Positions 3,817 to 64,000 of a stretch of 64,000 nucleotides of DNA are shown here, in pieces; positions within the stretch are counted from its first letter, which is position 1, and each line of letters starts with the position of its first letter. The stretch is from assembly GCF_053078305.1 (NCBI RefSeq), contig NZ_CP166879.1; one strand, 5' to 3'. Position numbers and translations under genes: made by a program. Below the pieces are notes generated by a model. It had not been told where the DNA came from. It saw only the letters and a program-made list of their open reading frames with translations, and searched no databases.

Positions 3817-5544
3817 TTAGCAGATTGTTTTTTCTTCAATGAACTTGTTAACCAGCGTCATTAACTCGTCCGTTGTCGGTTGAGCAAGAGCCTGCTCTGC
3901 TAACACCTTCGCATCTTCGAAGTTCGTGTTACGGATAATCTTCTTAATGCGCGGGATAGAAATGGCGCTCATAGAGAATTCGTCCAGACCCATCCCCAGC
4001 AACAGAAGTGTAGCACGTTCATCGCCAGCAAGCTCACCACACATGCCAGTCCATTTGCCTTCAGCATGAGAAGCATCAATAACTTGCTTGATCAAGTTCA
4101 GCACGGACGGTGACATTGGCTGGTAAAGGTGTGAAATCATATCATTACCACGGTCAACTGCCAGAGTGTACTGCGTTAAATCATTGGTGCCGATACTAAA
4201 GAAATCAACTTCTTTGGCTAAATGACGTGCAATTGTTGCGGCAGCCGGTGTTTCCACCATTACGCCGATTTCAATTGACTCGTCAAACGCTTTACCTTCG
4301 TCGCGCAGTTCCTGTTTGTAAATTTCGATCTCTTTGCGCAGTGCACGCACTTCTTCAACAGAGATGATCATCGGGAACATAATGCGCAATTTACCGAAAG
4401 CCGAGGCACGCAGGATAGCGCGGAGCTGATCGCGCAGGATCTCTTTACGATCCATCGCGATACGGATAGCGCGCCAGCCGAGGAACGGGTTCTCTTCTTT
4501 CGGGAAGTTCATGTATGGCAGCTCTTTGTCGCCGCCGATGTCCATGGTACGAACGATAACCGCCTGCGAGCCACACGCTTCAGCCACTGCTTTGTAAGCA
4601 GCAAACTGTTCTTCTTCAGTGGGCAGCGCGTCGCGGTCCATGAACAGGAACTCAGTACGATACAGACCAACGCCTTCAGCGCCGTTACGCTCTGCACCTT
4701 CAACGTCACGAACCGTACCAATGTTAGCGCATACTTCTACCTGGTGACCGTCCAGCGTAATAGCTGGCAGATCTTTCAGTTTAGCAAGCTCTGCTTTTTC
4801 AGAAGCCACTTGCTCCTGAACAGCGCGCATTTTATCAATAACTTCGTTGGTTGGATTGACGTAAACCTGATTATTTACGGCATCCAGAATCAGATAGTCG
4901 TCATTTTTCACCTGAGAGGTGACGCTACCGGTACCCACGATAGCAGGCAGTTCCAGAGAACGCGCCATGATAGAGGTGTGGGAAGTACGGCCACCCGCGT
5001 CGGTGATGAAACCCAGCACCTTCTTCAGGTTCAGCTGTGCGGTTTCGGACGGCGTCAGGTCAGCGGCAACCAGAATGACTTCATCCTGAATGGCGCTCAG
5101 GTCGATAATCTTCAGGCCCAGGATGTTGCGCAGCAGGCGCTTACCGATATCACGTACGTCAGCCGCACGTTCTTTCAGGTATTCATCATCCAGCTCTTCC
5201 AGGGCAGAAGCCTGACCTTCGATAACTTCATGAGCAGCTGCGTCAGCAGTCATGTGTTTATCTTTAATCAGGGCTATGATTTCCTGCTCCAGCTCCTCAT
5301 CTTCGAGCAGCATAATATGCCCTTCAAAGATGGCTTCTTTTTCTTCACCGAACGTTTCACCAGCTTTCGTTTTGATCGTTTCCAGCTGGGCTGATGCCTT
5401 GGCACGACCGCTCAGAAAACGTTCAACTTCCTGATCAACCTGGTCGGCAGAAATTTTTTTCCGGTCAATGACAATTTCGTCTTCTTTCAGAAGCAGAGCT
5501 TTACCGAAAGCGATACCCGGGGATGCTAAAATGCCTGAAATCAT
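3817..5544 (-). CDS. ptsI: PTS enzyme I (phosphoenolpyruvate-protein phosphotransferase)
   Basis: 575 aa [22 protein letters not shown]...; between ptsH and crr. Confidence 0.95.
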
Positions 5545-14141: not shown

Positions 14142-14217
14142 TTGGTGGGTCGTGCAGGATTCGAACCTGCGACCAATTGATTAAAAGTCAACTGCTCTAC
14201 CAACTGAGCTAACGACC
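14142..14217 (-). tRNA. lysV: tRNA-Lys (anticodon UUU)
   Basis: Reverse complement reads GGGTCGTTAGCTCAGTTGGTAGAGCAGTTGACTTTTAATCAATTGGTCGCAGGTTCGAATCCTGCACGACCCACCA. Confidence 0.95.
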
Positions 14218-14221
14218 CGAA

Positions 14222-14297
14222 GTGGTGGGTGATGACGGGATCGAACCGCCGACCCCCTCCTTGTAAGGGAGGTGCTCTCCCAGCTGAGCTAATCACC
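14222..14297 (-). tRNA. valY: tRNA-Val (anticodon UAC)
   Basis: Reverse complement reads GGGTGATTAGCTCAGCTGGGAGAGCACCTCCCTTACAAGGAGGGGGTCGGCGGTTCGATCCCGTCATCACCCACCA. Confidence 0.95.
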
Positions 14298-14344
14298 CAC
14301 TTCGGTACTTCACATTTTTACAAGAAATTTAGCTGGTGAGAAAG

Positions 14345-14420
14345 TGGTGGGTGATGACGGGATCGAACCGCCGACCCCCTCCTTGTAAGGGAGGTGCTCT
14401 CCCAGCTGAGCTAATCACCC
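14345..14420 (-). tRNA. valX: tRNA-Val (anticodon UAC)
   Basis: Identical 76-nt tRNA-Val sequence, second copy. Confidence 0.95.
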
Positions 14421-14464
14421 ACTTCTCAATTTCTTGCTACACGGCGGAGACTACATAAAGTAGT

Positions 14465-14540
14465 TGGTGGGTGATGACGGGATCGAACCGCCGACCCCCT
14501 CCTTGTAAGGGAGGTGCTCTCCCAGCTGAGCTAATCACCC
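14465..14540 (-). tRNA. valU: tRNA-Val (anticodon UAC)
   Basis: Identical 76-nt tRNA-Val sequence, third copy; first gene of the operon on the minus strand. Confidence 0.95.
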
Positions 14541-17239: not shown

Positions 17240-17315
<76 letters not shown>

Positions 17316-17354
17316 AATTTTGCACCCAGCAAATTTGGTACGTAAACGCATCGT

Positions 17355-17430
<76 letters not shown>

Positions 17431-17469
17431 AATTTTGCACCCAGCAAATTTGGTACGTAAACGCATCGT

Positions 17470-17545
<76 letters not shown>

Positions 17546-32246: not shown

Positions 32247-32248
32247 CG

Positions 32249-33106
32249 TTAGCCCTGAAAACGGGCGCTGTACTCTCCCGGCGTCAGACCAAACTGACGC
32301 CGGAAAACGCGACAAAAATAGTCGCTATCCGGAAAACCGCAACGCTGTGCCACTTCATGAATTGACAGATGATATTTCTGCAAAATCATCCTCGCCTTCG
32401 CCATTCGCACCCAACGCACATATTCGATAAAACGCATTGTTCCATGCTGAGCAAACAGTTTTGACAGATGATTGGGCGTGATATTAAAAAACTGTGCCAC
32501 GCTCTCGCGGGTGAGCTGCTGGGCATAATTATCCTGAACCCAGTTACAAATGCTGTGATAGAGAAAATCGCCGCGCGGCTGCGAATTGCCCGGTGGCATA
32601 TTCACCACGTTGCGGCAAAGATGCAGCAAACTTAACACCAGTGGCTGAATGATATTCTGCTCCAGCGGCGAACGGCTAAGATGGGTGAGGGCGGTAAGTA
32701 TCGCTTCACCTTCACCGCGTTGCAGGCTGGGAAGCTGGATCTGGCGGGCTGGATGCAACAACGACGTGGTGCGGCTATCGTAAAACGATAACCCAAGCCA
32801 GGTCGGTGCGAACACCAGACTTAACAGCATCACCGGTTTGTTGTTGATCGGTAAATTAGCCGCGCGCGCCGGAATAAACAGCATTTCTCCTTCCACCAAA
32901 CGTTGCTGCTTTGCTTCCAGCAGATTGCCGTATTCGCCGCGCAGCACGATATCCAGACGGGGAAAATCAATACATAAACTGCCCACCGGCAACGAGGCAG
33001 GCTGGCTGGCAAACCAGACGCGCCCCAGTAGTTGCGGGTTAAGCACCAGGCCGCTGAACAGATCGGCGAAAAATTGTTGATCGGCGGGCAAGCCTGGTGC
33101 TTTCAT
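32249..33106 (-). CDS. ypdC: AraC-family transcriptional regulator
   Basis: 285 aa; C-terminal AraC HTH (SIHEVAQRCGFPDSDYFCRVFRRQFGLTPGEY). Confidence 0.85.
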   Translation of the reverse strand: MKAPGLPADQQFFADLFSGLVLNPQLLGRVWFASQPASLPVGSLCIDFPRLDIVLRGEYGNLLEAKQQRLVEGEMLFIPARAANLPINNKPVMLLSLVFAPTWLGLSFYDSRTTSLLHPARQIQLPSLQRGEGEAILTALTHLSRSPLEQNIIQPLVLSLLHLCRNVVNMPPGNSQPRGDFLYHSICNWVQDNYAQQLTRESVAQFFNITPNHLSKLFAQHGTMRFIEYVRWVRMAKARMILQKYHLSIHEVAQRCGFPDSDYFCRVFRRQFGLTPGEYSARFQG

Positions 33107-33118
33107 GAAAGTTCCCGA

Positions 33119-33853
33119 TTAAAGATGCATTAACTGGCGAAATTCTTTTACTTTGCTGCGGCTGACTGGCACTTCAAAATCCAGATCTTTCAGCCGCAGA
33201 ATATAGGTGTTATTAAACCACGGTTCGATCTCGCGGATTTTGTTCAGATTGACACAAAATGAGCGATGGCAGCGGAAAAAATGCGACGGCGGCAGTTTGC
33301 TGCAAAATTCGGTAATGTTCATCGGCATTACGTAGGATTCACGCCGCGTATAAACAAAGGTCATTTTCTCGTGCGCTTCGGCGTAATAGATATCGTTAAT
33401 GGGGGTGACGATTATTCGCTCATCTTTCACCAGATTAATGGTGTCATTCTCACGCGTTACCGTCGCGGCAGGCGTGCTGCTGGTCTGCTGTTGTTGCCAG
33501 GCCGCTTCCAGTTTTTGCAGCATCCCGGTAATGCGTGACTCCTGATACGGTTTGAGAATGTAGTCAAACGCCTCCAGTTCGAACGCTTCTACCGCATGTT
33601 CTTTCCACGCGGTGATGAACACAATAAACGGTTTATGGGCGAACTGGCTGATGTTTTGTGCCAGCAACACACCATCCAGCGACGGAATATTGATATCCAG
33701 AAAAATGGCGTCGACGCGGTTATGCTGCAAAAACTTCAACACGTCCAGACCGTCGTCAAAGGTGCCGACAATCTCCATCTGGCTGTGCTCTTTAATTAGC
33801 CAGCTCAGTTCCTGTTGTGCCAGGAATTCGTCTTCAACAATGATGACTTTCAC
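33119..33853 (-). CDS. ypdB: LytTR-family response regulator (two-component partner of ypdA)
   Basis: Receiver domain (VKVIIVEDE..., D in FLDINIP) plus C-terminal LytTR; start chosen as GTG giving 244 aa, track ORF extends to 33871. Confidence 0.8.
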   Translation of the reverse strand: MKVIIVEDEFLAQQELSWLIKEHSQMEIVGTFDDGLDVLKFLQHNRVDAIFLDINIPSLDGVLLAQNISQFAHKPFIVFITAWKEHAVEAFELEAFDYILKPYQESRITGMLQKLEAAWQQQQTSSTPAATVTRENDTINLVKDERIIVTPINDIYYAEAHEKMTFVYTRRESYVMPMNITEFCSKLPPSHFFRCHRSFCVNLNKIREIEPWFNNTYILRLKDLDFEVPVSRSKVKEFRQLMHL

Positions 33854-50893: not shown

Positions 50894-52057
50894 GTGGAAC
50901 AGATTAATTCAAATAAAAAACATTCTAACAGAAGAAAATACTTTTCTTTATTGGCGATAGTTTTATTTATTGCGTTTTCAGGTGCTTATGCCTATTGGTC
51001 AATGGAATTAGAAGACATGATTAGTACAGATGACGCCTATGTCACGGGGAATGCAGATCCAATTTCTGCACAAGTCTCAGGTAGTGTCACTGTAGTTAAT
51101 CATAAAGATACGAACTACGTTCGACAGGGTGACATTTTAGTTTCACTGGATAAAACTGATGCCACTATCGCACTCAATAAAGCTAAAAATAATCTGGCAA
51201 ATATTGTTCGGCAAACGAATAAACTGTACTTACAGGATAAACAATACAGTGCCGAAGTCGCTTCAGCACGTATTCAGTATCAACAATCTTTAGAAGATTA
51301 TAACCGTCGTGTGCCTTTAGCGAAGCAGGGGGTTATTTCAAAAGAAACGCTGGAGCATACCAAAGATACGTTAATAAGTAGCAAAGCGGCATTGAATGCC
51401 GCTATCCAGGCTTATAAAGCGAATAAAGCTTTAGTAATGAACACACCATTAAACCGTCAGCCACAAGTCGTTGAAGCTGCGGATGCAACCAAAGAAGCCT
51501 GGTTGGCGCTTAAACGTACGGATATTAAGAGTCCGGTTACCGGCTATATTGCCCAGAGAAGTGTTCAGGTCGGCGAAACAGTGAGCCCCGGACAATCGTT
51601 AATGGCTGTCGTACCGGCACGTCAAATGTGGGTTAATGCCAACTTTAAAGAAACACAACTCACGGATGTACGGATTGGTCAATCGGTCAATATTATCAGC
51701 GATCTTTATGGTGAAAATGTTGTGTTTCATGGCCGGGTGACAGGGATCAATATGGGAACCGGCAATGCGTTCTCCTTATTACCTGCACAAAATGCGACAG
51801 GGAACTGGATCAAAATCGTTCAGCGTGTACCGGTTGAAGTTTCTCTTGATCCAAAAGAACTCATGGAACACCCCTTGCGCATTGGTTTATCGATGACTGC
51901 AACTATTGATACGAAGGACGAAGACATTGCTGAGATGCCTGATCTGGCTTCAACCGTGACCTCCATGCCTGCTTATACCAGTAAGGCTTTAGTTATCGAT
52001 ACCAGTCCGATAGAAAAAGAAATTAGCAACATTATTTCGCATAATGGACAACTTTAA
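50894..52057 (+). CDS. emrK: multidrug efflux membrane fusion protein (EmrA-like)
   Basis: 387 aa; N-terminal TM anchor, HlyD-family coiled-coil/lipoyl regions; divergent from evgA. Confidence 0.9.
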   Translation: MEQINSNKKHSNRRKYFSLLAIVLFIAFSGAYAYWSMELEDMISTDDAYVTGNADPISAQVSGSVTVVNHKDTNYVRQGDILVSLDKTDATIALNKAKNNLANIVRQTNKLYLQDKQYSAEVASARIQYQQSLEDYNRRVPLAKQGVISKETLEHTKDTLISSKAALNAAIQAYKANKALVMNTPLNRQPQVVEAADATKEAWLALKRTDIKSPVTGYIAQRSVQVGETVSPGQSLMAVVPARQMWVNANFKETQLTDVRIGQSVNIISDLYGENVVFHGRVTGINMGTGNAFSLLPAQNATGNWIKIVQRVPVEVSLDPKELMEHPLRIGLSMTATIDTKDEDIAEMPDLASTVTSMPAYTSKALVIDTSPIEKEISNIISHNGQL

Positions 52058-53595
52058 TGGCAATCACTAAATCAACTCCAGCACCATTAACCGGTGGGAC
52101 GTTATGGTGCGTCACTATTGCATTGTCATTAGCGACGTTTATGCAAATGTTGGATTCCACTATTTCTAACGTCGCAATACCGACAATATCTGGCTTTCTG
52201 GGAGCATCAACAGACGAAGGCACCTGGGTTATCACCTCGTTTGGCGTAGCAAATGCCATTGCGATCCCTGTTACCGGCAGGCTGGCACAAAGAATAGGCG
52301 AATTAAGGTTATTTTTACTTTCAGTCACTTTTTTTTCGCTGTCTTCCTTAATGTGTAGTTTATCGACCAATCTTGATGTGTTGATATTTTTTAGAGTCGT
52401 TCAGGGGTTAATGGCAGGGCCGTTAATTCCACTGTCACAGAGTTTATTATTAAGGAATTATCCACCAGAAAAAAGAACATTTGCTCTGGCATTATGGTCA
52501 ATGACCGTGATTATAGCTCCGATATGTGGGCCGATATTAGGCGGATATATTTGCGATAACTTTAGCTGGGGTTGGATATTTTTAATCAATGTCCCTATGG
52601 GTATTATCGTCCTGACATTATGCTTAACCTTACTTAAAGGAAGAGAAACTGAGACTTCACCGGTCAAAATGAATCTACCAGGACTGACCCTGTTAGTGCT
52701 CGGTGTTGGTGGCTTGCAAATTATGCTTGATAAAGGGCGCGATCTGGATTGGTTCAACTCGAGTACAATAATAATATTAACAGTAGTATCAGTTATTTCT
52801 CTGATCTCTTTAGTCATTTGGGAGTCGACCTCAGAGAACCCGATTCTTGATCTCAGTTTGTTTAAGTCCCGTAATTTCACCATTGGTATAGTGAGTATCA
52901 CATGCGCGTATTTATTTTACTCTGGAGCGATCGTCCTTATGCCGCAGTTACTCCAGGAAACGATGGGGTATAATGCGATATGGGCCGGACTTGCTTATGC
53001 GCCCATCGGCATCATGCCACTATTAATTTCACCTTTGATAGGACGTTATGGCAACAAAATAGACATGCGGTTGTTAGTGACATTTAGTTTTTTGATGTAT
53101 GCGGTTTGCTATTACTGGCGTTCTGTGACATTTATGCCAACGATTGATTTTACAGGCATCATTTTGCCACAGTTTTTCCAGGGGTTCGCCGTTGCCTGTT
53201 TCTTTTTACCCTTAACAACGATTTCGTTTTCAGGGTTGCCAGATAATAAATTTGCCAATGCCTCGAGTATGAGTAATTTTTTTCGTACCTTGTCAGGATC
53301 AGTTGGTACGTCGTTGACAATGACGCTGTGGGGGCGACGCGAATCGTTACACCATAGTCAGTTGACAGCAACCATCGATCAATTTAACCCTGTGTTTAAT
53401 TCATCGTCACAAATTATGGATAAATACTATGGTTCGCTTTCAGGAGTTCTTAATGAAATTAATAATGAAATAACCCAGCAGTCACTTTCTATTTCTGCAA
53501 ATGAGATTTTCCGTATGGCGGCTATTGCTTTTATCTTACTTACGGTTTTGGTTTGGTTTGCGAAACCGCCGTTTACAGCGAAAGGCGTTGGGTGA
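52057..53595 (+). CDS. emrY: MFS multidrug efflux transporter (EmrB-like, 14-TM)
   Basis: 512 aa MFS ORF; start overlaps emrK stop (TAATGG). Confidence 0.9.
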   Translation: MAITKSTPAPLTGGTLWCVTIALSLATFMQMLDSTISNVAIPTISGFLGASTDEGTWVITSFGVANAIAIPVTGRLAQRIGELRLFLLSVTFFSLSSLMCSLSTNLDVLIFFRVVQGLMAGPLIPLSQSLLLRNYPPEKRTFALALWSMTVIIAPICGPILGGYICDNFSWGWIFLINVPMGIIVLTLCLTLLKGRETETSPVKMNLPGLTLLVLGVGGLQIMLDKGRDLDWFNSSTIIILTVVSVISLISLVIWESTSENPILDLSLFKSRNFTIGIVSITCAYLFYSGAIVLMPQLLQETMGYNAIWAGLAYAPIGIMPLLISPLIGRYGNKIDMRLLVTFSFLMYAVCYYWRSVTFMPTIDFTGIILPQFFQGFAVACFFLPLTTISFSGLPDNKFANASSMSNFFRTLSGSVGTSLTMTLWGRRESLHHSQLTATIDQFNPVFNSSSQIMDKYYGSLSGVLNEINNEITQQSLSISANEIFRMAAIAFILLTVLVWFAKPPFTAKGVG

Positions 53596-53702
53596 TGGTA
53601 AAAGCAGGGGGTTATAGCGGGTAAGACCGGGGATCTTAAGTCTGCGCCATCGGCAGCATCGCTCACCCAGGGAAAGGATGGCGATGCTGCGTTGAAATGT
53701 TA

Positions 53703-55031
53703 TTAACGGCCTTTTGCCAGATATTGCTCCATCTCTTCTTCCGGCACCATTCCACCTCCCGTCGCCCACACCAGATGAGTGGTATTACGCAGTTGTTCTG
53801 CGCTGAAACCGTGCATCTGTTGGTAACTTACTGATGCACACACGCGCTGAGGTCCGGCCATACCCGCCAGTGCCGAAGGTTCAAGACGAATACCTTCTTC
53901 CTGCGCCAGCCAGCCAAGCATGTCATACATGGTTTGATCGCTAAGGGTATAGAAGCCATCCAGCAGACGCTCCATTGCCCGCCCGACAAAGCCTGATGCG
54001 CGACCAACTGCAAGGCCATCCGCTGCGGTAAGGTTGTCGATACCAATATCCTGAACAGAAATCTGATCGTGTAATCCTGTATGGACGCCTAACAACATAC
54101 AAGGGGAGTGCGTTGGTTCGGCAAAAAAGCAGTGAACATGATCGCCAAACGCCAGTTTAAGCCCGAATGCGACGCCACCAGGACCACCGCCAACACCACA
54201 CGGCAGATAGACAAACAGAGGGTTATCAGCATCGACGATACGGCCTTGCTGGGCAAATTGCGCTTTAAGACGCTGGCCAGCGACGGAATACCCAAGGAAC
54301 AACGTGCGGGAATTTTCGTCATCAATAAAGAAACAGTTCGGGTCAGACTGCGCTGCTTTACGTCCTTCCTCGACGGCAACACCATAATCTTGCTCATATT
54401 CCACGACCGTAACGCCATGGCTGCGCAGTTTCGCTTTTTTCCATGCCCGGGCATCAGCAGACATATGCACTGTCACCTTAAAGCCAATGCGGGCGCTCAT
54501 AATGCCGATTGATAACCCCAGATTTCCGGTTGAGCCCACAGCAATGCTGTATTGGCTAAAGAACTGTTTAAACTCCGGAGAAAGCAGTTTGCTGTAGTCA
54601 TCATCAAGCGTCAGCAACCCCGCTTCCAGAGCCAGTTTTTCTGCGTGTGCCAGGACTTCATAAATCCCGCCGCGTGCTTTTATGGAGCCGGAAATGGGCA
54701 AATGGCTATCTTTTTTCAGTAACAGTTGCCCGCTGATCGGTTGTTGATATTCCTTTTCCAGCCGTTTTTGCATAGCCGGAATGGCAACCAGTTCTGATTC
54801 AATAATCCCCCCAGTGGCAGCAGTTTCAGGAAATGCTTTTGCCAGATAGGGTGCAAAACGGGATAAGCGCGCATGGGCGTCCTGAACATCCTGTTCGGTC
54901 AGGCCAACATAAGGTAAACCTTCAGCCAATGAGGTCGTGCCAGGATTAAACCAGGTGGTTTCTTTAAGAGCAACCAGATCCTTTACCAACGGATACTGGG
55001 CGATGAGCGAGTTCATTTTAGCGTTTTCCAT
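53703..55031 (-). CDS. dsdA: D-serine ammonia-lyase (D-serine dehydratase)
   Basis: 442 aa PLP enzyme [31 protein letters not shown]..., PLP lysine in SGSIKARGG. Confidence 0.93.
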
Positions 55032-55048
55032 AGTACGTCTCTTTGCGC

Positions 55049-55279
55049 TTAGATGATAAATGACAGCAGGAATGTGCCCGCCAGAGCGACGACTGAAGCG
55101 ATAAATGTCGCTGTCGTATAGTATTTAAATGTTTCATTGAGCGTAGCGCCGCAATATTGCTTCACCAGCCAGAAAAGCGAGTCCGTAACGATCGTGCAGC
55201 CAATCGCGCCTGAACCGATAGCAATCGCAATAATTTCCGGGCTGATGTCGGGATACAGCGGCAGCACAATGATCCATAT
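55049..55279 (-). pseudogene. dsdX: 3'-terminal remnant of D-serine permease gene dsdX (GntP family)
   Basis: Only the last ~72 codons of a GntP-type permease are present immediately upstream of dsdA; reading frame is closed by a stop at 55280-55282. Confidence 0.7.
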
Positions 55280-55373
55280 TTATATTTTCTTCTCCAGGTT
55301 GGCGATGCCAGTTGGCATGTTTTACTTACTTGCCTATATGGTTACTCGTTGGCGAGAACAGAGGCGGAATTGG

Positions 55374-55385
55374 GGACAATTGTCC
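55374..55385. promoter_or_regulatory. perfect 12-bp palindrome upstream of cscR
   Basis: GGACAATTGTCC about 110 bp upstream of cscR start; candidate operator. Confidence 0.25.
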
Positions 55386-55497
55386 GGGAATTATTGTTAT
55401 TTTTTATTGTATTGCCGTGTCAGGTGATAGGGCGTTGGATCTCGCCAGTGACGTCTGTTTCTGCTACAGTGCCCGTTTTACGGCAAACGGCTTGGGT

Positions 55498-56493
55498 ATG
55501 GCTTCATTAAAGGATGTCGCACGCCTGGCGGGAGTGTCGATGATGACAGTCTCCCGGGTGATGCATAATGCAGAATCTGTGCGTCCTGCAACGCGTGACC
55601 GCGTATTGCAGGCAATCCAGACCCTGAATTATGTTCCTGATCTTTCCGCCCGTAAGATGCGCGCTCAAGGACGTAAGCCGTCGACTCTCGCCGTGCTGGC
55701 GCAGGACACTGCTACCACTCCTTTCTCTGTTGATATTCTGCTTGCCATTGAGCAAACCGCCAGCGAGTTCGGCTGGAATAGTTTTTTAATCAATATTTTT
55801 TCTGAAGATGACGCTGCCCGCGCGGCACGTCAGCTGCTTGCCCACCGTCCGGATGGCATTATCTATACTACAATGGGGCTGCGACATATCACGCTACCTG
55901 AGTCTCTGTATGGTGAAAATATTGTATTGGCGAACTGTGTGGCGGATGACCCAGCGTTACCCAGTTATATCCCTGATGATTACACTGCACAATATGAATC
56001 AACACAGCATTTGCTCGCGGCGGGCTATCGTCAACCGTTATGCTTCTGGCTACCGGAAAGTGCGTTGGCAACAGGGTATCGTCGGCAGGGATTTGAGCAG
56101 GCCTGGCGTGATGCTGGACGAGATCTGGCTGAGGTGAAACAATTTCACATGGCAACAGGTGATGATCACTACACCGATCTCGCAAGTTTACTCAATGACC
56201 ACTTCAAATCGGGCAAACCAGATTTTGATGTTCTGATATGTGGTAACGATCGCGCAGCCTTTGTGGCTTATCAGGTTCTCCTGGCTAAGGGGGTACGTAT
56301 CCCGCAGGATGTCGCCGTAATGGGCTTTGATAATCTGGTTGGCGTCGGGCATCTGTTTTTACCGCCGCTGACCACAATTCAGCTTCCACATGACATTATC
56401 GGGCGGGAAGCTGCATTGCATATTATTGAAGGTCGTGAAGGGGGAAGTGTGACGCGGATCCCTTGCCCGCTGTTGATCCGTTGTTCCACCTGA
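55498..56493 (+). CDS. cscR: LacI-family sucrose operon repressor
   Basis: 331 aa from MASLKDVARLAGVSMMTVSRVMHN (LacI HTH); the track ORF from 55312 is an upstream extension. Confidence 0.85.
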   Translation: MASLKDVARLAGVSMMTVSRVMHNAESVRPATRDRVLQAIQTLNYVPDLSARKMRAQGRKPSTLAVLAQDTATTPFSVDILLAIEQTASEFGWNSFLINIFSEDDAARAARQLLAHRPDGIIYTTMGLRHITLPESLYGENIVLANCVADDPALPSYIPDDYTAQYESTQHLLAAGYRQPLCFWLPESALATGYRRQGFEQAWRDAGRDLAEVKQFHMATGDDHYTDLASLLNDHFKSGKPDFDVLICGNDRAAFVAYQVLLAKGVRIPQDVAVMGFDNLVGVGHLFLPPLTTIQLPHDIIGREAALHIIEGREGGSVTRIPCPLLIRCST

Positions 56494-56500
56494 TATTATG

Positions 56501-57934
56501 TTAACCCAGTTGCCAGAGTGCTCCATGTTGCACCACAGCCACTCCGTGGGAGGCATAAAGCGACAGTTCCCGTTCTTCTGGCTGCGGATAGATTCGACTA
56601 CTCATCACCGCTTCCCCGTCGTTAATAAATACTTCCACGGATGATGTATCGATAAATATCCTTAGGGCGAGCGTGTCACGCTGCGGGAGGGGAATACTAC
56701 GGTAGCCGTCTAAATTCTCGTGTGGGTAATACCGCCACAAAACAAGTCGCTCAGATTGGTTATCAATATACAGCCGCATTCCAATGCCGAGCTGTAATCC
56801 GTAATGTTCGGCATCACTGTTCTTCAGCGCCCACTGCAACTGAATCTCAACTGCTTGCGCGTTTTCCTGCAAAACATATTTATTGCTGATTGTGCGGGGA
56901 GAGATAGATTGATGCTGCTGGCGTAACGACTCAGCTTCGTGTACCGGGCGTTGTAGGAGTTTGCCATTGCTCTCTGATAGCTCGCGCGCCAGCGTCATGC
57001 AGCCTGCCCAGCCTTCACGTTTTGAGGGCATTGGCGATTCCCACATATCCATCCAGCCGATAACAATACGCCGACCATCCTTCGCTACAAAGCTTTGTGG
57101 TGCATAAAAGTCATGCCCGTTATCAAGTTCAGTAAAATGCCCGGATTGTGCAAAAAGTCGTCCTGGCGACCACATTCCGGGTATTACGCCACTTTGAAAG
57201 CGATTTCGGTAACTGTATCCCTCGGCATTCATTCCCTGCGGGGAAAACATCAGATAATGCTGATCGCCAAGGCTGAAAAAGTCCGGACATTCCCACATAT
57301 AGCTTTCACCCGCATCAGCGTGGGCCAGTACGCGATCGAAAGTCCATTCACGTAATGAACTGCCGCGATAAAGCAGGATCTGCCCCGTGTTGCCTGGGTC
57401 TTTCGCCCCGACTACCATCCACCATGTGTCGGCTTCACGCCACACTTTAGGATCGCGGAAGTGCATGATTCCTTCTGGTGGAGTGAGGATCACACCCTGT
57501 TTCTCGAAATGAATACCATCCCGACTGGTAGCCAGACATTGTACTTCGCGAATTGCATCGTCATTACCTGCACCATCGAGCCAGACGTGTCCGGTGTAGA
57601 TAAGTGAGAGGACACCATTGTCATCGACAGCACTACCTGAAAAACACCCGTCTTTGTCATTATCGTCTCCTGGCGCTAGCGCAATAGGCTCATGCTGCCA
57701 GTGGATCATATCGTCGCTGGTGGCATGTCCCCAGTGCATTGGCCCCCAGTGTTCGCTCATTGGGTGATGTTGATAAAACGCGTGATAACGATCGTTAAAC
57801 CAGATCAGGCCGTTTGGATCGTTCATCCACCCGGCAGGAGGCGCGAGGTGAAAATGGGGATAGAAAGTGTTACCCCGGTGCTCATGAAGTTTTGCTAGTG
57901 CGTTTTGCGCCGCATGCAATCGAGATTGCGTCAT
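56501..57934 (-). CDS. cscA: sucrose-6-phosphate hydrolase / invertase (GH32)
   Basis: 477 aa from MTQSRLH...; GH32 motifs WMNDPNG, FRDPKV, WECPD. Confidence 0.88.
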   Translation of the reverse strand: MTQSRLHAAQNALAKLHEHRGNTFYPHFHLAPPAGWMNDPNGLIWFNDRYHAFYQHHPMSEHWGPMHWGHATSDDMIHWQHEPIALAPGDDNDKDGCFSGSAVDDNGVLSLIYTGHVWLDGAGNDDAIREVQCLATSRDGIHFEKQGVILTPPEGIMHFRDPKVWREADTWWMVVGAKDPGNTGQILLYRGSSLREWTFDRVLAHADAGESYMWECPDFFSLGDQHYLMFSPQGMNAEGYSYRNRFQSGVIPGMWSPGRLFAQSGHFTELDNGHDFYAPQSFVAKDGRRIVIGWMDMWESPMPSKREGWAGCMTLARELSESNGKLLQRPVHEAESLRQQHQSISPRTISNKYVLQENAQAVEIQLQWALKNSDAEHYGLQLGIGMRLYIDNQSERLVLWRYYPHENLDGYRSIPLPQRDTLALRIFIDTSSVEVFINDGEAVMSSRIYPQPEERELSLYASHGVAVVQHGALWQLG

Positions 57935-57966
57935 TTTAATCATCCTGGTTAAGCAAATTTGGTGAA

Positions 57967-58044
57967 TTGTTAACGTTAACTTTTATAAAAATAAAGTCCC
58001 TTACTTTCATAAATGCGATGAATATCACAAATGTTAACGTTAAC
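57967..58044. promoter_or_regulatory. cscA / cscKB divergent control region with two copies of a LacI-type operator palindrome
   Basis: TGTTAACGTTAAC occurs at 57967-57980 and 58032-58044 (core GTTAACGTTAAC is palindromic). Confidence 0.55.
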
Positions 58045-58149
58045 TATGACATTTTGTGATCGAATATGCATGTTTTAGTAAATCCATGACGATTTTGCGA
58101 AAAAGAGGTTTATCACTATGCGTAAGTCAGATGAATTTAAGGGAAAAAA

Positions 58150-59064
58150 ATGTCAGCCAAAGTATGGGTTTTAGGGGATGCGGTAGTAGATCTCTTGCCA
58201 GAATCAGACGGGCGCCTACTGCCTTGTCCTGGCGGCGCGCCAGCTAACGTTGCGGTGGGAATCGCCAGATTAGGCGGAATAAGTGGGTTTATAGGTCGGG
58301 TCGGTGATGATCCTTTTGGTGCGTTAATGCAAAGAACGCTGCTAACTGAGGGAGTCGATATCACGTATCTGAAGCAAGATGAATGGCACCGGACATCCAC
58401 GGTGCTTGTCGATCTGAACGATCAAGGGGAACGTTCATTTACGTTTATGGTCCGCCCCAGTGCCGATCTTTTTTTAGAGACGACAGACTTGCCCTGCTGG
58501 CGACATGGCGAATGGTTACATCTCTGTTCAATTGCGTTGTCTGCCGAGCCTTCGCGTACCAGCGCATTTACTGCGATGACTGCGATCCGGCATGCCGGAG
58601 GTTTTGTCAGCTTCGATCCCAATATTCGTGAAGATCTATGGCAAGACGAGCATTTGCTCCGCTTGTGTTTGCGGCAGGCGCTACAACTGGCGGATGTCGT
58701 CAAGCTCTCGGAAGAAGAATGGCGACTTATCAGTGGAAAAACACAGAACGATCGGAATATATGCGCCCTGGCAAAAGAGTATGAGATCGCCATGCTGTTG
58801 GTGACTAAAGGTGCAGAAGGGGTGGTGGTCTGTTATCGAGGACAAGTTCACCATTTTGCTGGAATGTCTGTGAATTGTGTCGATAGCACGGGGGCGGGAG
58901 ATGCGTTCGTTGCCGGGTTACTCACAGGTCTGTCCTCTACGGGATTATCTACAGATGAGAGAGGAATGCGACGAATTATCGATCTCGCTCAACGTTGCGG
59001 AGCGCTTGCAGTAACGGCGAAAGGGGCAATGACAGCGCTGCCATGTCGACAAGAACTGGAATAG
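58150..59064 (+). CDS. cscK: fructokinase (ribokinase/pfkB family)
   Basis: 304 aa; pfkB motifs (VVDLLPE..., DSTGAGDAFVAGLL). Confidence 0.88.
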   Translation: MSAKVWVLGDAVVDLLPESDGRLLPCPGGAPANVAVGIARLGGISGFIGRVGDDPFGALMQRTLLTEGVDITYLKQDEWHRTSTVLVDLNDQGERSFTFMVRPSADLFLETTDLPCWRHGEWLHLCSIALSAEPSRTSAFTAMTAIRHAGGFVSFDPNIREDLWQDEHLLRLCLRQALQLADVVKLSEEEWRLISGKTQNDRNICALAKEYEIAMLLVTKGAEGVVVCYRGQVHHFAGMSVNCVDSTGAGDAFVAGLLTGLSSTGLSTDERGMRRIIDLAQRCGALAVTAKGAMTALPCRQELE

Positions 59065-59135
59065 TGAGAAGTAAACGGCGAAGTCGCTCTTATCTCTAAA
59101 TAGGACGTGAATTTTTTAACGACAGGCAGGTAATT

Positions 59136-60383
59136 ATGGCACTGAATATCCCATTCAGAAATGCGTACTATCGTTTTGCATCCAGTTACTCATTTCTCTT
59201 TTTTATTTCCTGGTCGCTGTGGTGGTCGTTATACGCTATTTGGCTGAAAGGACATCTAGGGTTGACAGGGACGGAATTAGGTACACTTTATTCGGTCAAC
59301 CAGTTTACCAGCATTCTATTTATGATGTTCTACGGCATCGTTCAGGATAAACTCGGTCTGAAGAAACCGCTCATCTGGTGTATGAGTTTTATCCTGATCT
59401 TGACCGGACCGTTTATGATTTACGTTTATGAACCGTTACTGCAAAGCAATTTTTCTGTAGGTTTAATTCTGGGGGCGCTCTTTTTTGGCCTGGGGTATCT
59501 GGCGGGATGCGGTTTGCTTGACAGCTTCACCGAAAAAATGGCGCGAAATTTTCATTTCGAATATGGAACAGCGCGCGCCTGGGGATCTTTTGGCTATGCT
59601 ATTGGCGCGTTCTTTGCCGGCATATTTTTTAGTATCAGTCCCCATATTAACTTCTGGTTGGTCTCGCTATTTGGCGCTGTATTTATGATGATCAACATGT
59701 GTTTTAAAGATAAGGATCACCAGTGCGTAGCGGCGGATGCGGGAGGGGTAAAAAAAGAGGATTTTATCGCAGTTTTCAAGGATCGAAACTTCTGGGTTTT
59801 CGTCATATTTATTGTTGGGACGTGGTCTTTCTATAACATTTTTGATCAACAACTTTTTCCTGTCTTTTATGCAGGTTTATTCGAATCACACGATGTAGGA
59901 ACGCGCCTGTATGGTTATCTCAACTCATTCCAGGTGGTACTCGAAGCGCTGTGCATGGCGATTATTCCGTTCTTTGTGAATCGGGTAGGGCCAAAAAATG
60001 CATTACTTATCGGTGTTGTGATTATGGCGTTGCGTATCCTTTCCTGCGCGCTGTTCGTTAACCCCTGGATTATTTCATTAGTGAAGCTGTTACATGCCAT
60101 TGAGGTTCCACTTTATGTCATATCCGTCTTCAAATACAGCGTGGCAAACTTTGATAAGCGCCTGTCGTCGACGATCTTTCTGATTGGTTTTCAAATTGCC
60201 AGTTCGCTTGGGATTGTGCTGCTTTCAACGCCGACTGGGATACTCTTTGACCACGCAGGCTACCAGACAGTTTTCTTCGCAATTTCGGGTATTGTCTGCC
60301 TGATGTTGCTATTTGGCATTTTCTTCCTGAGTAAAAAACGCGAGCAAATAGTTATGGAAACGCCTGTACCTTCAGCAATATAG
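59136..60383 (+). CDS. cscB: sucrose:H+ symporter (oligosaccharide:H+ symporter family, LacY-like)
   Basis: 415 aa 12-TM MFS ORF. Confidence 0.88.
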   Translation: MALNIPFRNAYYRFASSYSFLFFISWSLWWSLYAIWLKGHLGLTGTELGTLYSVNQFTSILFMMFYGIVQDKLGLKKPLIWCMSFILILTGPFMIYVYEPLLQSNFSVGLILGALFFGLGYLAGCGLLDSFTEKMARNFHFEYGTARAWGSFGYAIGAFFAGIFFSISPHINFWLVSLFGAVFMMINMCFKDKDHQCVAADAGGVKKEDFIAVFKDRNFWVFVIFIVGTWSFYNIFDQQLFPVFYAGLFESHDVGTRLYGYLNSFQVVLEALCMAIIPFFVNRVGPKNALLIGVVIMALRILSCALFVNPWIISLVKLLHAIEVPLYVISVFKYSVANFDKRLSSTIFLIGFQIASSLGIVLLSTPTGILFDHAGYQTVFFAISGIVCLMLLFGIFFLSKKREQIVMETPVPSAI

Positions 60384-60824
60384 ACGTAAACTTTTTCCGG
60401 TTGTTGTCGATATCTCCATATCCTTCAACCGGAAAATAATAATACTAAAATGCTTAGCCCTGCTAATAATCGCCTAATCCAAACACCTCATTCATGTTCT
60501 GGTACAGTCGCTCAAATGTACTCCGGATACACGGTTCGCTGATTTCCAGGACATTGTCGTCATTCAGCGACCTGTCGCGTGTATCACGGGCCTGCGAATT
60601 CATCAAGGAATGCATTGCGGAGTGAAGTATCGAGTCACGCCATATTTCGCTATCAGGATTCTGTGTGATGGTTACATCGCCCGGCCCAAGGCTGTTTAGT
60701 CATCAGCGCTTTCTGACAGTGCTGAGATTTCAACCTGTTGCAGTAAAAATGAGTAGATATAGGGCAAGTGTGCTGCCAAACCCATCGTTTACGGGATGAA
60801 GGTAGATTTGGTTTGAAGGGTATC

Positions 60825-60839
60825 TGGTGTCCCCTGCAG
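60825..60839 (-). other. prophage att core: copy of the 3' end of tRNA-Arg (argW-type)
   Basis: TGGTGTCCCCTGCAG is the reverse complement of ...CTGCAGGGGACACCA (3' acceptor end of tRNA-Arg-CCU as recalled); similarity stops after 15 nt, so this is a partial copy and not a tRNA gene. Confidence 0.5.
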
Positions 60840-60912
60840 ACATCTACTTGAAGCGGCAGGGGATTGATTGGAATGGTGTTTTTTAGATGTGAAAAATATT
60901 TTACCCGCTATT

Positions 60913-61113
60913 TTACCCATTGGCGCGGCTTAAGAGCTTATTTTTGAATTCACAATGGTCACGATATAACCATCTTGCTCGCCCGTGGATAACTTTGGCT
61001 TTAGGTAGGTCTCCGGACTTAATCCGGTCATAGATGAAGGTCTTACCGAAGCCAGTATCAGCCATGATGAATTTCAAATCAACCAGTGAATCAGGTTGTA
61101 GTTCGTGTTGCAT
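60913..61113 (-). CDS. torI: AlpA/TorI-type excisionase (recombination directionality factor)
   Basis: 66 aa MQHELQPDSLVDLKFIMADTGFGKTFIYDRIKSGDLPKAKVIHGRARW...; winged-helix Xis family; matches my recollection of TorI of the argW prophage. Confidence 0.6.
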   Translation of the reverse strand: MQHELQPDSLVDLKFIMADTGFGKTFIYDRIKSGDLPKAKVIHGRARWLYRDHCEFKNKLLSRANG

Positions 61114-61217
61114 GAGTGCTATCTCCGAATAGGGAATCGAACCTGCAAATCAGGCAATAAAAAAACCGCATTGATGCGGCGATGGTAGGTCTGGATATCT
61201 TGATAAATGAAAATGCC

Positions 61218-61496
61218 TCATCGAGTGTGAGGCGGTGTGATTCCATGGTTACCTCTGCTTTTTGAACGCATGTCACGTAACTTCTTAATGTGTTCTGCCG
61301 TTTCGATCTCTTCTGCTATCCGATCTGCATCAGCTTTATTCACAGGTTCAAAGTCATGATTAAAGCGGAACATGCTGGCGATACATGTTCTGCCTTTTCG
61401 GATGTAGTGAACTTTGTTGTGGTTAGAACGCAGGATTTTGCAGGGAGTGCCGTGGTGGTCGACGTACCAGGTGTTAGGCAAAATGATTCTGAACAT
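61218..61496 (-). CDS. hypothetical prophage protein
   Basis: 92 aa ORF co-oriented with the prophage early-left operon. Confidence 0.45.
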   Translation of the reverse strand: MFRIILPNTWYVDHHGTPCKILRSNHNKVHYIRKGRTCIASMFRFNHDFEPVNKADADRIAEEIETAEHIKKLRDMRSKSRGNHGITPPHTR

Positions 61497-61543
61497 TTTT
61501 ACACCTCAGTTGGACGATGTTGAAATTTGCTCCTTTGAGGTCA

Positions 61544-61762
61544 TCACAATCCCCATTGTTTGTTCTTAAGTTCGATCTCCTCCTGGCAACTTGCACAAGT
61601 CCGACAACCCTGAACGGCTAGGCGTCTTCGCTTATCTATGGGATCGCCACACTCACAACAATGAGTGGCAGATATAGCCTGGTGGTTCAGGCGGCGCATT
61701 TTTATTGCTGTGTTGCGCTGTAATTCTTCAATTTCTGATGCTGAATCAATGATGTCTGCCAT
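61544..61762 (-). CDS. DksA/TraR-family C4 zinc-finger protein (phage-encoded)
   Basis: 72 aa with CxxC-N17-CxxC (CCECGDPID...CRTCASC). Confidence 0.6.
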   Translation of the reverse strand: MADIIDSASEIEELQRNTAIKMRRLNHQAISATHCCECGDPIDKRRRLAVQGCRTCASCQEEIELKNKQWGL

Positions 61763-61860
61763 CTTTCATTAATCCCTGAATTGTTGGTTAATACGCTTGA
61801 GGGTGAATGCGAATAATAAAAAAGGAGCCTGTAGCTCCATGAAGATTTTGCTTTTCATGT

Positions 61861-62142
61861 TCACCGTTCCTTAAAGACGCCGTTTAACATACCGATTGCC
61901 AGACTTAAGTGAGTCGGTGTGAATCCCATCAGCGTTACCGTTTCGCGGTGCTTCTTCAGTACGCTACGGCAAATGTCATCGACGTTTTTATCCGGAAACT
62001 GCTGTCTGGCTTTTTTGATTTCAGAATTAGCCTGACGGGCAATACTGCGAAGGGCGTTTTCTTGCTGAGGTGTCATTGAACAAGTCCCATGTCGGCAAGC
62101 ATAAGCACACAGAATATGAAGCCCGCTGCCAGAAAAATGCAT
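61861..62142 (-). CDS. hypothetical prophage protein (start uncertain; internal Met would give about 71 aa)
   Basis: 93 aa ORF in the early-left region. Confidence 0.4.
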   Translation of the reverse strand: MHFSGSGLHILCAYACRHGTCSMTPQQENALRSIARQANSEIKKARQQFPDKNVDDICRSVLKKHRETVTLMGFTPTHLSLAIGMLNGVFKER

Positions 62143-62152
62143 TCAGTGGTTG

Positions 62153-62344
62153 TCATACCTGGTCTCTCTCATCTGCTTCTGCTTTCGCCACCATCATTTC
62201 CAGCTTTTGTGAAAGGGATGTGGCTAACGTATGAAATTCTTCGTCTGTTTCTGCTGGTATTGGCACAAACCTGACTCCAATTTGAGCAAGGCTATGTGCC
62301 ATCTCAATGCTCGTTCTTAACTCAACAGGAGATGCTTTGTGCAT
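62153..62344 (-). CDS. hypothetical small prophage protein
   Basis: 63 aa ORF immediately downstream of exo in the same operon orientation. Confidence 0.4.
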   Translation of the reverse strand: MHKASPVELRTSIEMAHSLAQIGVRFVPIPAETDEEFHTLATSLSQKLEMMVAKAEADERDQV

Positions 62345-62495
62345 ACAGCCCCTCGTTTATTATTTATCTCCTCAGCCAGCCGCTGGGCTTTCAGTGGATT
62401 TTGGATAACAGAAAGGCCGGGAAATACCCAGCCTCGCTTTGTAACGGAGTAGACGAAAGTGATCGCACCTACCCGGATATTATCGTGAGGATGCT

Positions 62496-63176
62496 TCATC
62501 GCCATTGCTCCCCAAATACAAAACCAATTTCAGCCAGTGCCTCGTCCATTTTTTCGATGAACTCCGGCACCATCTCGTCAAAACTCGCCATGTAATTTTC
62601 ATCCCGCTCAACCACGACATAATGCAGGCCTTCACGCTTCATGCGTGGGTCATAGTTGGCAAAGTACCAGGCATCTTTTCGCGTCACCCACATGCTGTAC
62701 TGCACCTGGGCCATGTAAGCCGACTTTATGGCCTCGAAACCACCGAGCCGGAACTTCATGAAATCCCGGGAGGTAAACGGGCATTTCAGCTCAAGACCAT
62801 TGCCGTCACTGCATAAACCATCGGGAGAGCAGGCGGTGCGCATACTTTCGTCGCGATAGATGATCGGGGATTCAGTAACATTCACGCCGGAAGTGAATTC
62901 AAACAGGGTTCTGGCGTCGTTCTCGTACTGTTTTCCCCAGGCCAGCGCCTTAGCATTAACTTCCGGAGCCACACCGGTGCAAACCTCAGCCAGCAGGGTG
63001 TGGAAGTAGGACATTTTCATGTCAGGCCATTTCTTTCCGGAGCGGGGTTTTGCTATCACGTTGTGAACTTCTGAAGCTGTGATGACGCCGAGCCGTAATT
63101 TGTGCCACGCATCATCCCCCTGCTCGACAGCTCTCACGTCGATCCCGGTACGCTGCAGGATAATGTCTGGTGTCAT
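62496..63176 (-). CDS. exo: lambda-type 5'-3' exonuclease (Red alpha)
   Basis: 226 aa [37 protein letters not shown]...; matches phage lambda Exo as recalled. Confidence 0.9.
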
Positions 63177-63958
63177 GCTGCCACCTTCTGCTCAGTGGCT
63201 TTTTGTTTCAGGAATCCAAGAGCTTTCACTGCTTCGGCCTGTGTCAGTTCTGACGATGCACGAATGTCGCGGCGAAATATCTGGGAACAGAGCGGCAATA
63301 AGTCGTCATCCCATGTTTTATCCAGGGCGATCAGCAGAGTGTTAATCTCCTGCATGGTTTCATCGTTAACCGGAGTGATGTCGCGTTCCGGCTGGCGTTC
63401 TGCAGTGTATGCGGTATTTTCGACAATGCGCTCGGCTTCATCCTTGTCATAGATACCAGCAAATCCGAAGGCCAGGCGGGCACACTGAATCATGGCTTTA
63501 TGCCGTAACATCCGTTTGGGATGCGACTGCCACGGGCCGGTGATTTCTCTGCCTTCGCGGGTTTTGAATGGTTCGCGTCGGCATTCATCCATCCACTCGG
63601 TAACGCAGATCGGATGATTACGGTCTTTGCGGTAAATCCGGCATGTACAGGATTCATTGTCCTGCTCAAAGTCCATGCCATCAAACTGCTGGTTTTCATT
63701 GATGATGCGGGACCAGCCATCAACGCCCACCACCGGAACGATGCCGTTCTGCTTATCAGGGAAGGCGTAAATTTCTTTCGTCCACGGATTAAGGCCGTAC
63801 TGGTTGGCGACGATCAACAATGCGATGAACTGCGCATCGCTGGCATCGCCTTTAAATGCTGTCTGGCGAAGAGTGGTGATCAGTTCCTGTGGGTCGACAG
63901 AATCCATGCCGACACGTTCAGCCAGCTTCCCTGCCAGCGTTGCGAGTGCTGTACTCAT
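63173..63958 (-). CDS. bet: lambda-type single-strand annealing protein (Red beta)
   Basis: 261 aa [35 protein letters not shown]...; start overlaps exo by 4 nt. Confidence 0.9.
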
Positions 63959-63963
63959 CCGTT

Positions 63964-64000
63964 TTATACCTCTGAATCAATATCAACCTGGTGGTGAGCA
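63964..64000 (-). CDS. gam: Gam-like RecBCD inhibitor, C-terminal end only (gene continues beyond window)
   Basis: Minus-strand frame ends ...AHHQVDIDSEV* 5 nt upstream of bet start, consistent with the lambda Gam C-terminus. Confidence 0.6.
   Translation of the reverse strand, partial: AHHQVDIDSEV

Follow-up and report, generated by a model that had tools for sequence, protein, structure and literature searches.

An apparently intact lambda Red gene set in a lambdoid prophage at the argW site of Escherichia coli strain 48

Lambda Red, KplE1 and the prophage at argW

The Red system of phage lambda is among the best-characterised recombination systems. In lambda (31348-33232) its genes stand in the order gam-bet-exo, with an ATGA overlap between bet and exo, and both the order and the overlap are the same in the prophage described here. 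The orf60a/orf63/orf61 block that follows downstream in lambda is also collinear in this prophage, at 96.9% DNA identity. The two differ in what surrounds these genes and in gam: where lambda has kil, cIII, ea10, ral and N upstream, the prophage has a Rac-type kilR instead; where lambda has xis-int downstream, the prophage has torI at attR; and whereas lambda gam includes the GamL extension, the prophage encodes the 98-aa GamS form only. GamS corresponds to residues 41-138 of the long Gam form of lambda and acts as a RecBCD inhibitor both in vitro and in vivo (PMC5218532). The stretch of DNA analysed here (the window) is 64,000 nucleotides long, and its end very probably holds the genes farthest from the promoter in the early-left operon of a prophage of E. 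coli strain 48; this prophage is lambdoid, would have entered tRNA-argW by way of an IntS/TorI module of the KplE1 type, and carries an apparently intact lambda Red system.

The other closely related element is KplE1 (CPS-53) of K-12, which has the chromosomal site, the 15-nt attR core and TorI (100% identical) in common with this prophage. CPS-53 is a 10.2-kb remnant that has no repressor and no similarity to exo, bet or gam (PMC2951348), whereas in the prophage here the early, replication and lysis regions are all present in full. The only part of the window that CPS-53 matches is 60825-61239, comprising attR, torI and some of ypdJ, at 93% DNA identity. When Exo, Bet and Gam were searched against CPS-53 of K-12 by tblastn, nothing better than E=0.19 was obtained, and blastn likewise found no Red sequence. 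Since the blastn and tblastn matches comprise attR, torI and ypdJ only, Red remnants in CPS-53 were ruled out. The original prediction had described the argW prophage of K-12 as retaining only fragments of this region; the element is indeed a remnant, but it contains no Red sequence at all.

The attR core, CTGCAGGGGACACCA, a duplicated 3' end of argW, lies at 60825..60839 on the minus strand. It occurs exactly once in the window, against 0 expected by chance. The core sequence of KplE1, CTGCAGGGGACACCAT, is duplicated at the KplE1 ends (PMC2951348), and 15 of its 16 nt are matched exactly at 60825..60839; this region also aligns with pawZ of K-12. The position of the core indicates that the prophage ends at about 60825. 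Neither an integrase gene nor the argW tRNA was found within the 64-kb window, as is expected of the KplE1-type module, which has intS and argW at its opposite end. In the relative NADC1036, which carries a prophage at the same site, yfdC, argW and intS are at the far end, roughly 40 kb away. The prophage is thus placed at argW, and its recombination module is of the KplE1 type.

The end of the prophage directly adjoins the csc sucrose genes. The genes cscR, cscA, cscK and cscB lie within 55049..60383, between dsdA and the attR of the prophage, with cscB ending at 60383. A dsdX remnant of 72 aa is present at 55049..55267 and dsdC is absent, whereas in K-12 dsdC-dsdX-dsdA abuts attR. The interval of about 440 bp from cscB to the attR core (60384..60824) contains short ORFs only and is conserved in csc-positive relatives; blastn detected no K-12 counterpart of this interval. 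Elsewhere in the window, three tandem tRNA-Ala(GGC) genes about 40 bp apart were observed at 17240..17545, and a cluster of three tRNA-Val(UAC) genes and tRNA-Lys at 14143..14540.

The layout cscB-attR-torI-...-exo-bet-gam-kilR is shared, at 96-98% identity, with the csc-adjoining argW prophages of NADC1036, PM22 and ECC-1470 and with temperate phages such as PhiR70_1, Turner and 2G7b. The csc-attR-torI-Red arrangement recurs in dozens of genomes, and the block from torI to gam is also present in isolated temperate phages at about 97% identity. These relatives are mosaic: they vary in an accessory gene that separates orf60a from the TraR-like gene, in what lies between repressor and pL, and in the late regions. 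The terminase, for example, is HK97-like in NADC1036 and of the lambda Nu1/A type in the prophage here. In a 7.5-kb Logan contig (SRR34061455), the torI-to-gam block is 99.97% identical over 3190 bp, and its repressor and insert genes differ from those here; this contig illustrates the shuffling of modules around an almost invariant Red block.

Taking exo-bet as present when at least 80% of the segment was covered, lambda-type exo-bet was detected in 3138 of 5426 complete E. coli genomes (58%), in up to seven places per genome. Since more than half of the complete genomes carry it, the Red genes here are real but ordinary, and a Red gene set in a prophage is already known. An Exo of exactly this sequence appears in 8186 indexed blocks of a public collection, at several integration sites.

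The exo, bet and gam genes

The window contains two full-length Red genes on the minus strand. The exo gene (Red alpha, lambda exonuclease) at 62496..63176 encodes 226 aa, and bet (Red beta, the single-stranded DNA annealing protein) at 63173..63958 encodes 261 aa; both were identified by ORF listing, BLASTP and Pfam. In BLASTP against the lambda proteins (NC_001416), Exo showed 222 of 226 identities (98%) and Bet 260 of 261 (99.6%), both without gaps. Pfam assigned Exo to YqaJ (PF09588, E=4.5e-30) and Bet to RecT (PF03837, E=2.7e-33). As had been predicted, both genes are uninterrupted in the ORF listing, with no frameshift, and the bet stop and exo start share the canonical 4-nt ATGA, at 63173-63176, as fits a translationally coupled pair. 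Compared with lambda, exo carries 16 synonymous and four non-synonymous codon changes (N168D, I189V, K194N and I202M) and bet carries 21 synonymous and one non-synonymous change (A255T). The catalytic residues of Exo, D119, E129 and K131, are all kept. The synonymous excess in the minus-strand frames reflects purifying selection on exo and bet rather than chance. Three plus-strand ORFs of 103, 116 and 158 aa lie opposite the two genes. They were rejected as spurious, as the codon changes are of the kind expected for the minus-strand frames. The two of them that were searched, of 116 and 158 aa, gave no Pfam match.

The 3' end of gam occupies 63964..64000 on the minus strand, up to the window edge, with the remainder of the gene lying past it. 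These last 37 bases of the window comprise 11 codons (AHHQVDIDSEV) and TAA, and the lambda gene ends identically. As in lambda, 5 nt separate the gam stop from the bet ATG. The gam end had been described as being in frame upstream; an ORF does end there, but gam and bet are in different phases, a difference of no significance between separate ORFs. Just 36 nt of gam fall within the window, and the intactness of the Red module is not readable from the window alone. That of gam was therefore read in the public contig JPQG01000003.1 (GCA_000736735.1), which was taken as the source of the window since it is identical to window positions 51218-64000 (100% identity over 12,783 bp, no mismatch). This contig comes from the subAB2-3 reference strain E. 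coli 48 (PMC5323612). Among complete RefSeq genomes of E. coli none is an exact match; the best reach 96-98% identity at 92-96% coverage.

Sequence past the window edge was read in two loci from JPQG01000003.1, L014 and L026; the overlap of L026 with the window is identical, and L026 reaches 15.4 kb past the window, up to the start of terminase A. In JPQG01000003.1, gam is complete with 98 aa (L014 7237..7533), in place of the truncation that had been named as a finding that would speak against an intact module. The protein aligns end to end (residues 1-98) with the Gam chains of PDB 5MBV, a RecBCD-Gam complex, and 2UUZ (E=2.5e-61), and is identical to the GamS portion of lambda Gam at 96 of 98 residues, with two residues differing. 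Homology to lambda begins just 82 nt upstream of the gamS ATG, which indicates that the N-terminal extension of GamL is not encoded. By these alignments, the gam of JPQG01000003.1 is the GamS form.

Downstream of exo, the window from 61567 to 64000 is collinear with lambda 30418-32852 at 96.9% DNA identity. The orf60a homologue (62317..62499, minus strand; Pfam DUF1317, E=5.7e-40) has a start that overlaps the exo stop by ATGA, and is followed by the orf63 homologue (62153..62344, minus strand; Pfam DUF1382, E=5.2e-30). In the orf61 region, a 93-aa ORF from the ORF listing (61861..62142, minus strand) lies inside the lambda-collinear block and has no Pfam match; this gene is called as 71 aa in the public annotation (L014 and L026). 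Next to this block are genes for a TraR/DksA-type C4 zinc-finger protein of 72 aa (61544..61762, minus strand; Pfam zf-dskA_traR, E=3.4e-8) and a DUF4222 protein of 92 aa (61218..61496, minus strand; Pfam DUF4222, E=5e-19). By exact-sequence look-up, the DUF4222 protein sequence is rare, being found in four contigs only, JPQG01000003.1 among them; an exact look-up of the O protein also led to this contig. The last gene is torI (60913..61113, minus strand), which encodes a KplE1-type recombination directionality factor (excisionase) of 66 aa; in tblastn it shows no difference from K-12 TorI (100% identity), and relatives carry the torI annotation. The order of the operon is the candidate pL, kilR, gam, bet, exo, orf60a, orf63, orf61, the TraR-like gene, the DUF4222 gene and torI, and then attR.

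Repressor, candidate pL region and later genes beyond the window

Beyond the window edge, a Rac-type kilR lies upstream of gam, and the 500-bp non-coding stretch upstream of kilR holds the best promoter match of the region. This candidate, TTGATA-17-TATTAT (10/12), is at L014 6649-6677; the scan overall returned 8 sites, no excess over shuffles (6.7). Operator-like motifs, ATAGCAAT, flank the promoter candidate at L014 6636 and 6661 and occur twice more in the intergenic region between the repressor gene and ydaS. In the locus as a whole the motif occurs five times, against 1.0 expected, and none of 100 shuffles reached five. Loss of the pL region had been named, along with truncation of gam, as evidence that would speak against an intact module; instead, a pL-like promoter candidate with operator-like repeats is found upstream of the Red genes.

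From the repressor to kilR (L014 6450..6955 and 3941..4046), gene calls include no N, cIII or lambda kil gene, and the small ORFs in the interval gave no Pfam match. N_peptide/N36 genes were called in other loci, and N, cIII and kil-type genes in loci with an identical Exo. In many prophages the pL-to-kilR block recurs with 88-96% identity, as a conserved module in its own right. An antitermination RNA, put-like or of another structured kind, was considered for the stretch separating pL from kilR and was rejected for want of evidence: Rfam gave no match at E<=1 on this interval, its fold z-score is just -1.14, and it has no similarity to HK022 (region 20-32 kb, searched for put). Terminator-like hairpins in the interval are weak and no commoner than in shuffles.

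The LexA-like, cI-type repressor, of 230 aa, contains HTH_3 and Peptidase_S24 domains, and its AG, GDSM and VKRL motifs are readable. Between the repressor and pL lies an insert of two genes (L014 4877..6450, equal to L026 6602..8175), encoding a HipA_2-like protein of 249 aa and a DUF3037 protein of 275 aa. In PADLOC the pair matches a candidate system for defence, PDC-M66A/B (E=5e-15 and 9e-16), and relatives have other genes at this spot. In lambda, the place between repressor and pL is that of rexAB.

Farther on, the prophage contains ydaS/ydaT, O, P, nin-region genes, Q, holin, lysozyme, Rz, Bor, Nu1 and the start of terminase A, and the genes from ydaS/ydaT to the terminase A start have the same lengths as in relatives. 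The porin moron between Q and holin (L026 16083..17181) is represented by two overlapping ORFs of 158 and 240 aa, whereas the porin has 360-365 aa in relatives. The split gene is probably a frameshift pseudogene, which suggests some decay in the prophage. Of the genes that had been proposed for checking beyond the window, gam, a cI-type repressor and O/P are thus present, but N is absent.

Predicted Red activity and its alternatives

The mechanism that we propose draws on what is established for lambda Red and for repressors of the LexA kind, to which the sequence adds the parts and the purifying selection only. In the lysogen, the cI-type HTH/S24 repressor would keep pL shut. On DNA damage, self-cleavage of the repressor stimulated by RecA would derepress pL. 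Gam would then block RecBCD, Exo would resect the 5' strands from double-strand ends, and the 3' single strands exposed in this way would be annealed by Bet to complementary DNA. Acting in concert, Gam, Exo and Bet may promote recombination-dependent replication of the phage and exchange with other lambdoid prophages. We infer that the operon would be expressed on induction, independently of N, and that Red would be active in vivo. With caveats, the parts described above support the original prediction that the prophage, if induced, could supply RecBCD inhibition and Red recombination.

The main rival explanation holds that the intact Red genes reside in a defective, non-inducible remnant like CPS-53 or Rac, as silent cargo that is never naturally expressed. 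The K-12 prophage at the same argW site is such a 10-kb remnant (PMC2951348), and the porin moron of the present prophage is frameshifted. In the 15 kb past the window, however, the repressor, ydaS/ydaT, O, P, Q, holin, lysozyme, Rz and Nu1 genes are of normal length and terminase A begins, as in relatives; the sequence recovered ends at that point, so that head, tail, intS and attL fall beyond it. Within these 15 kb, large deletions or IS insertions that would separate pL from gam-bet-exo are excluded. The lack of an N gene in the early-left region also speaks for a remnant; yet Red could be expressed with no more than a repressor, pL and the operon, and each of these is present, with pL as a candidate. 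The repressor retains the S24 self-cleavage motifs, and the purifying selection seen on exo and bet also argues against silent cargo. Taken together, we consider a defective remnant unlikely.

It is very improbable that the ORFs look intact and the system is inactive, whether through the five substitutions relative to lambda in Exo and Bet (N168D, I189V, K194N and I202M; A255T) or because gam encodes the short form only, without the GamL extension: the occurrence of the exact Exo in 8186 public blocks and of similar alleles in isolated phages is not expected of inactive variants, the catalytic residues D119/E129/K131 of Exo are unchanged, and GamS is the form that was crystallised with RecBCD and is active in vivo (PMC5218532).

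The preferred reading therefore remains an apparently intact Red operon in a lambdoid prophage at argW. A more far-reaching version combines several proposals: that the prophage is a fully inducible lambdoid phage, that its early-left region and Red are expressed without N by an undescribed mechanism of the kilR-type module, that the HipA_2/DUF3037 pair is an anti-phage defence expressed in the lysogen, and that Red drives exchange between this prophage and the other lambdoid ones that the subAB-positive strain carries. Taken jointly, these proposals are offered tentatively, as a possible but doubtful combination.

For the description of E. coli prophages, the finding has little importance beyond bookkeeping. 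For strain 48, if the Red operon is intact and probably SOS-inducible, the lysogen would be able to inhibit RecBCD transiently and to carry out recombination between short homologies. These capacities bear on prophage mosaicism and on the engineering of strain 48, in which Red function might come from a resident prophage instead of a plasmid.
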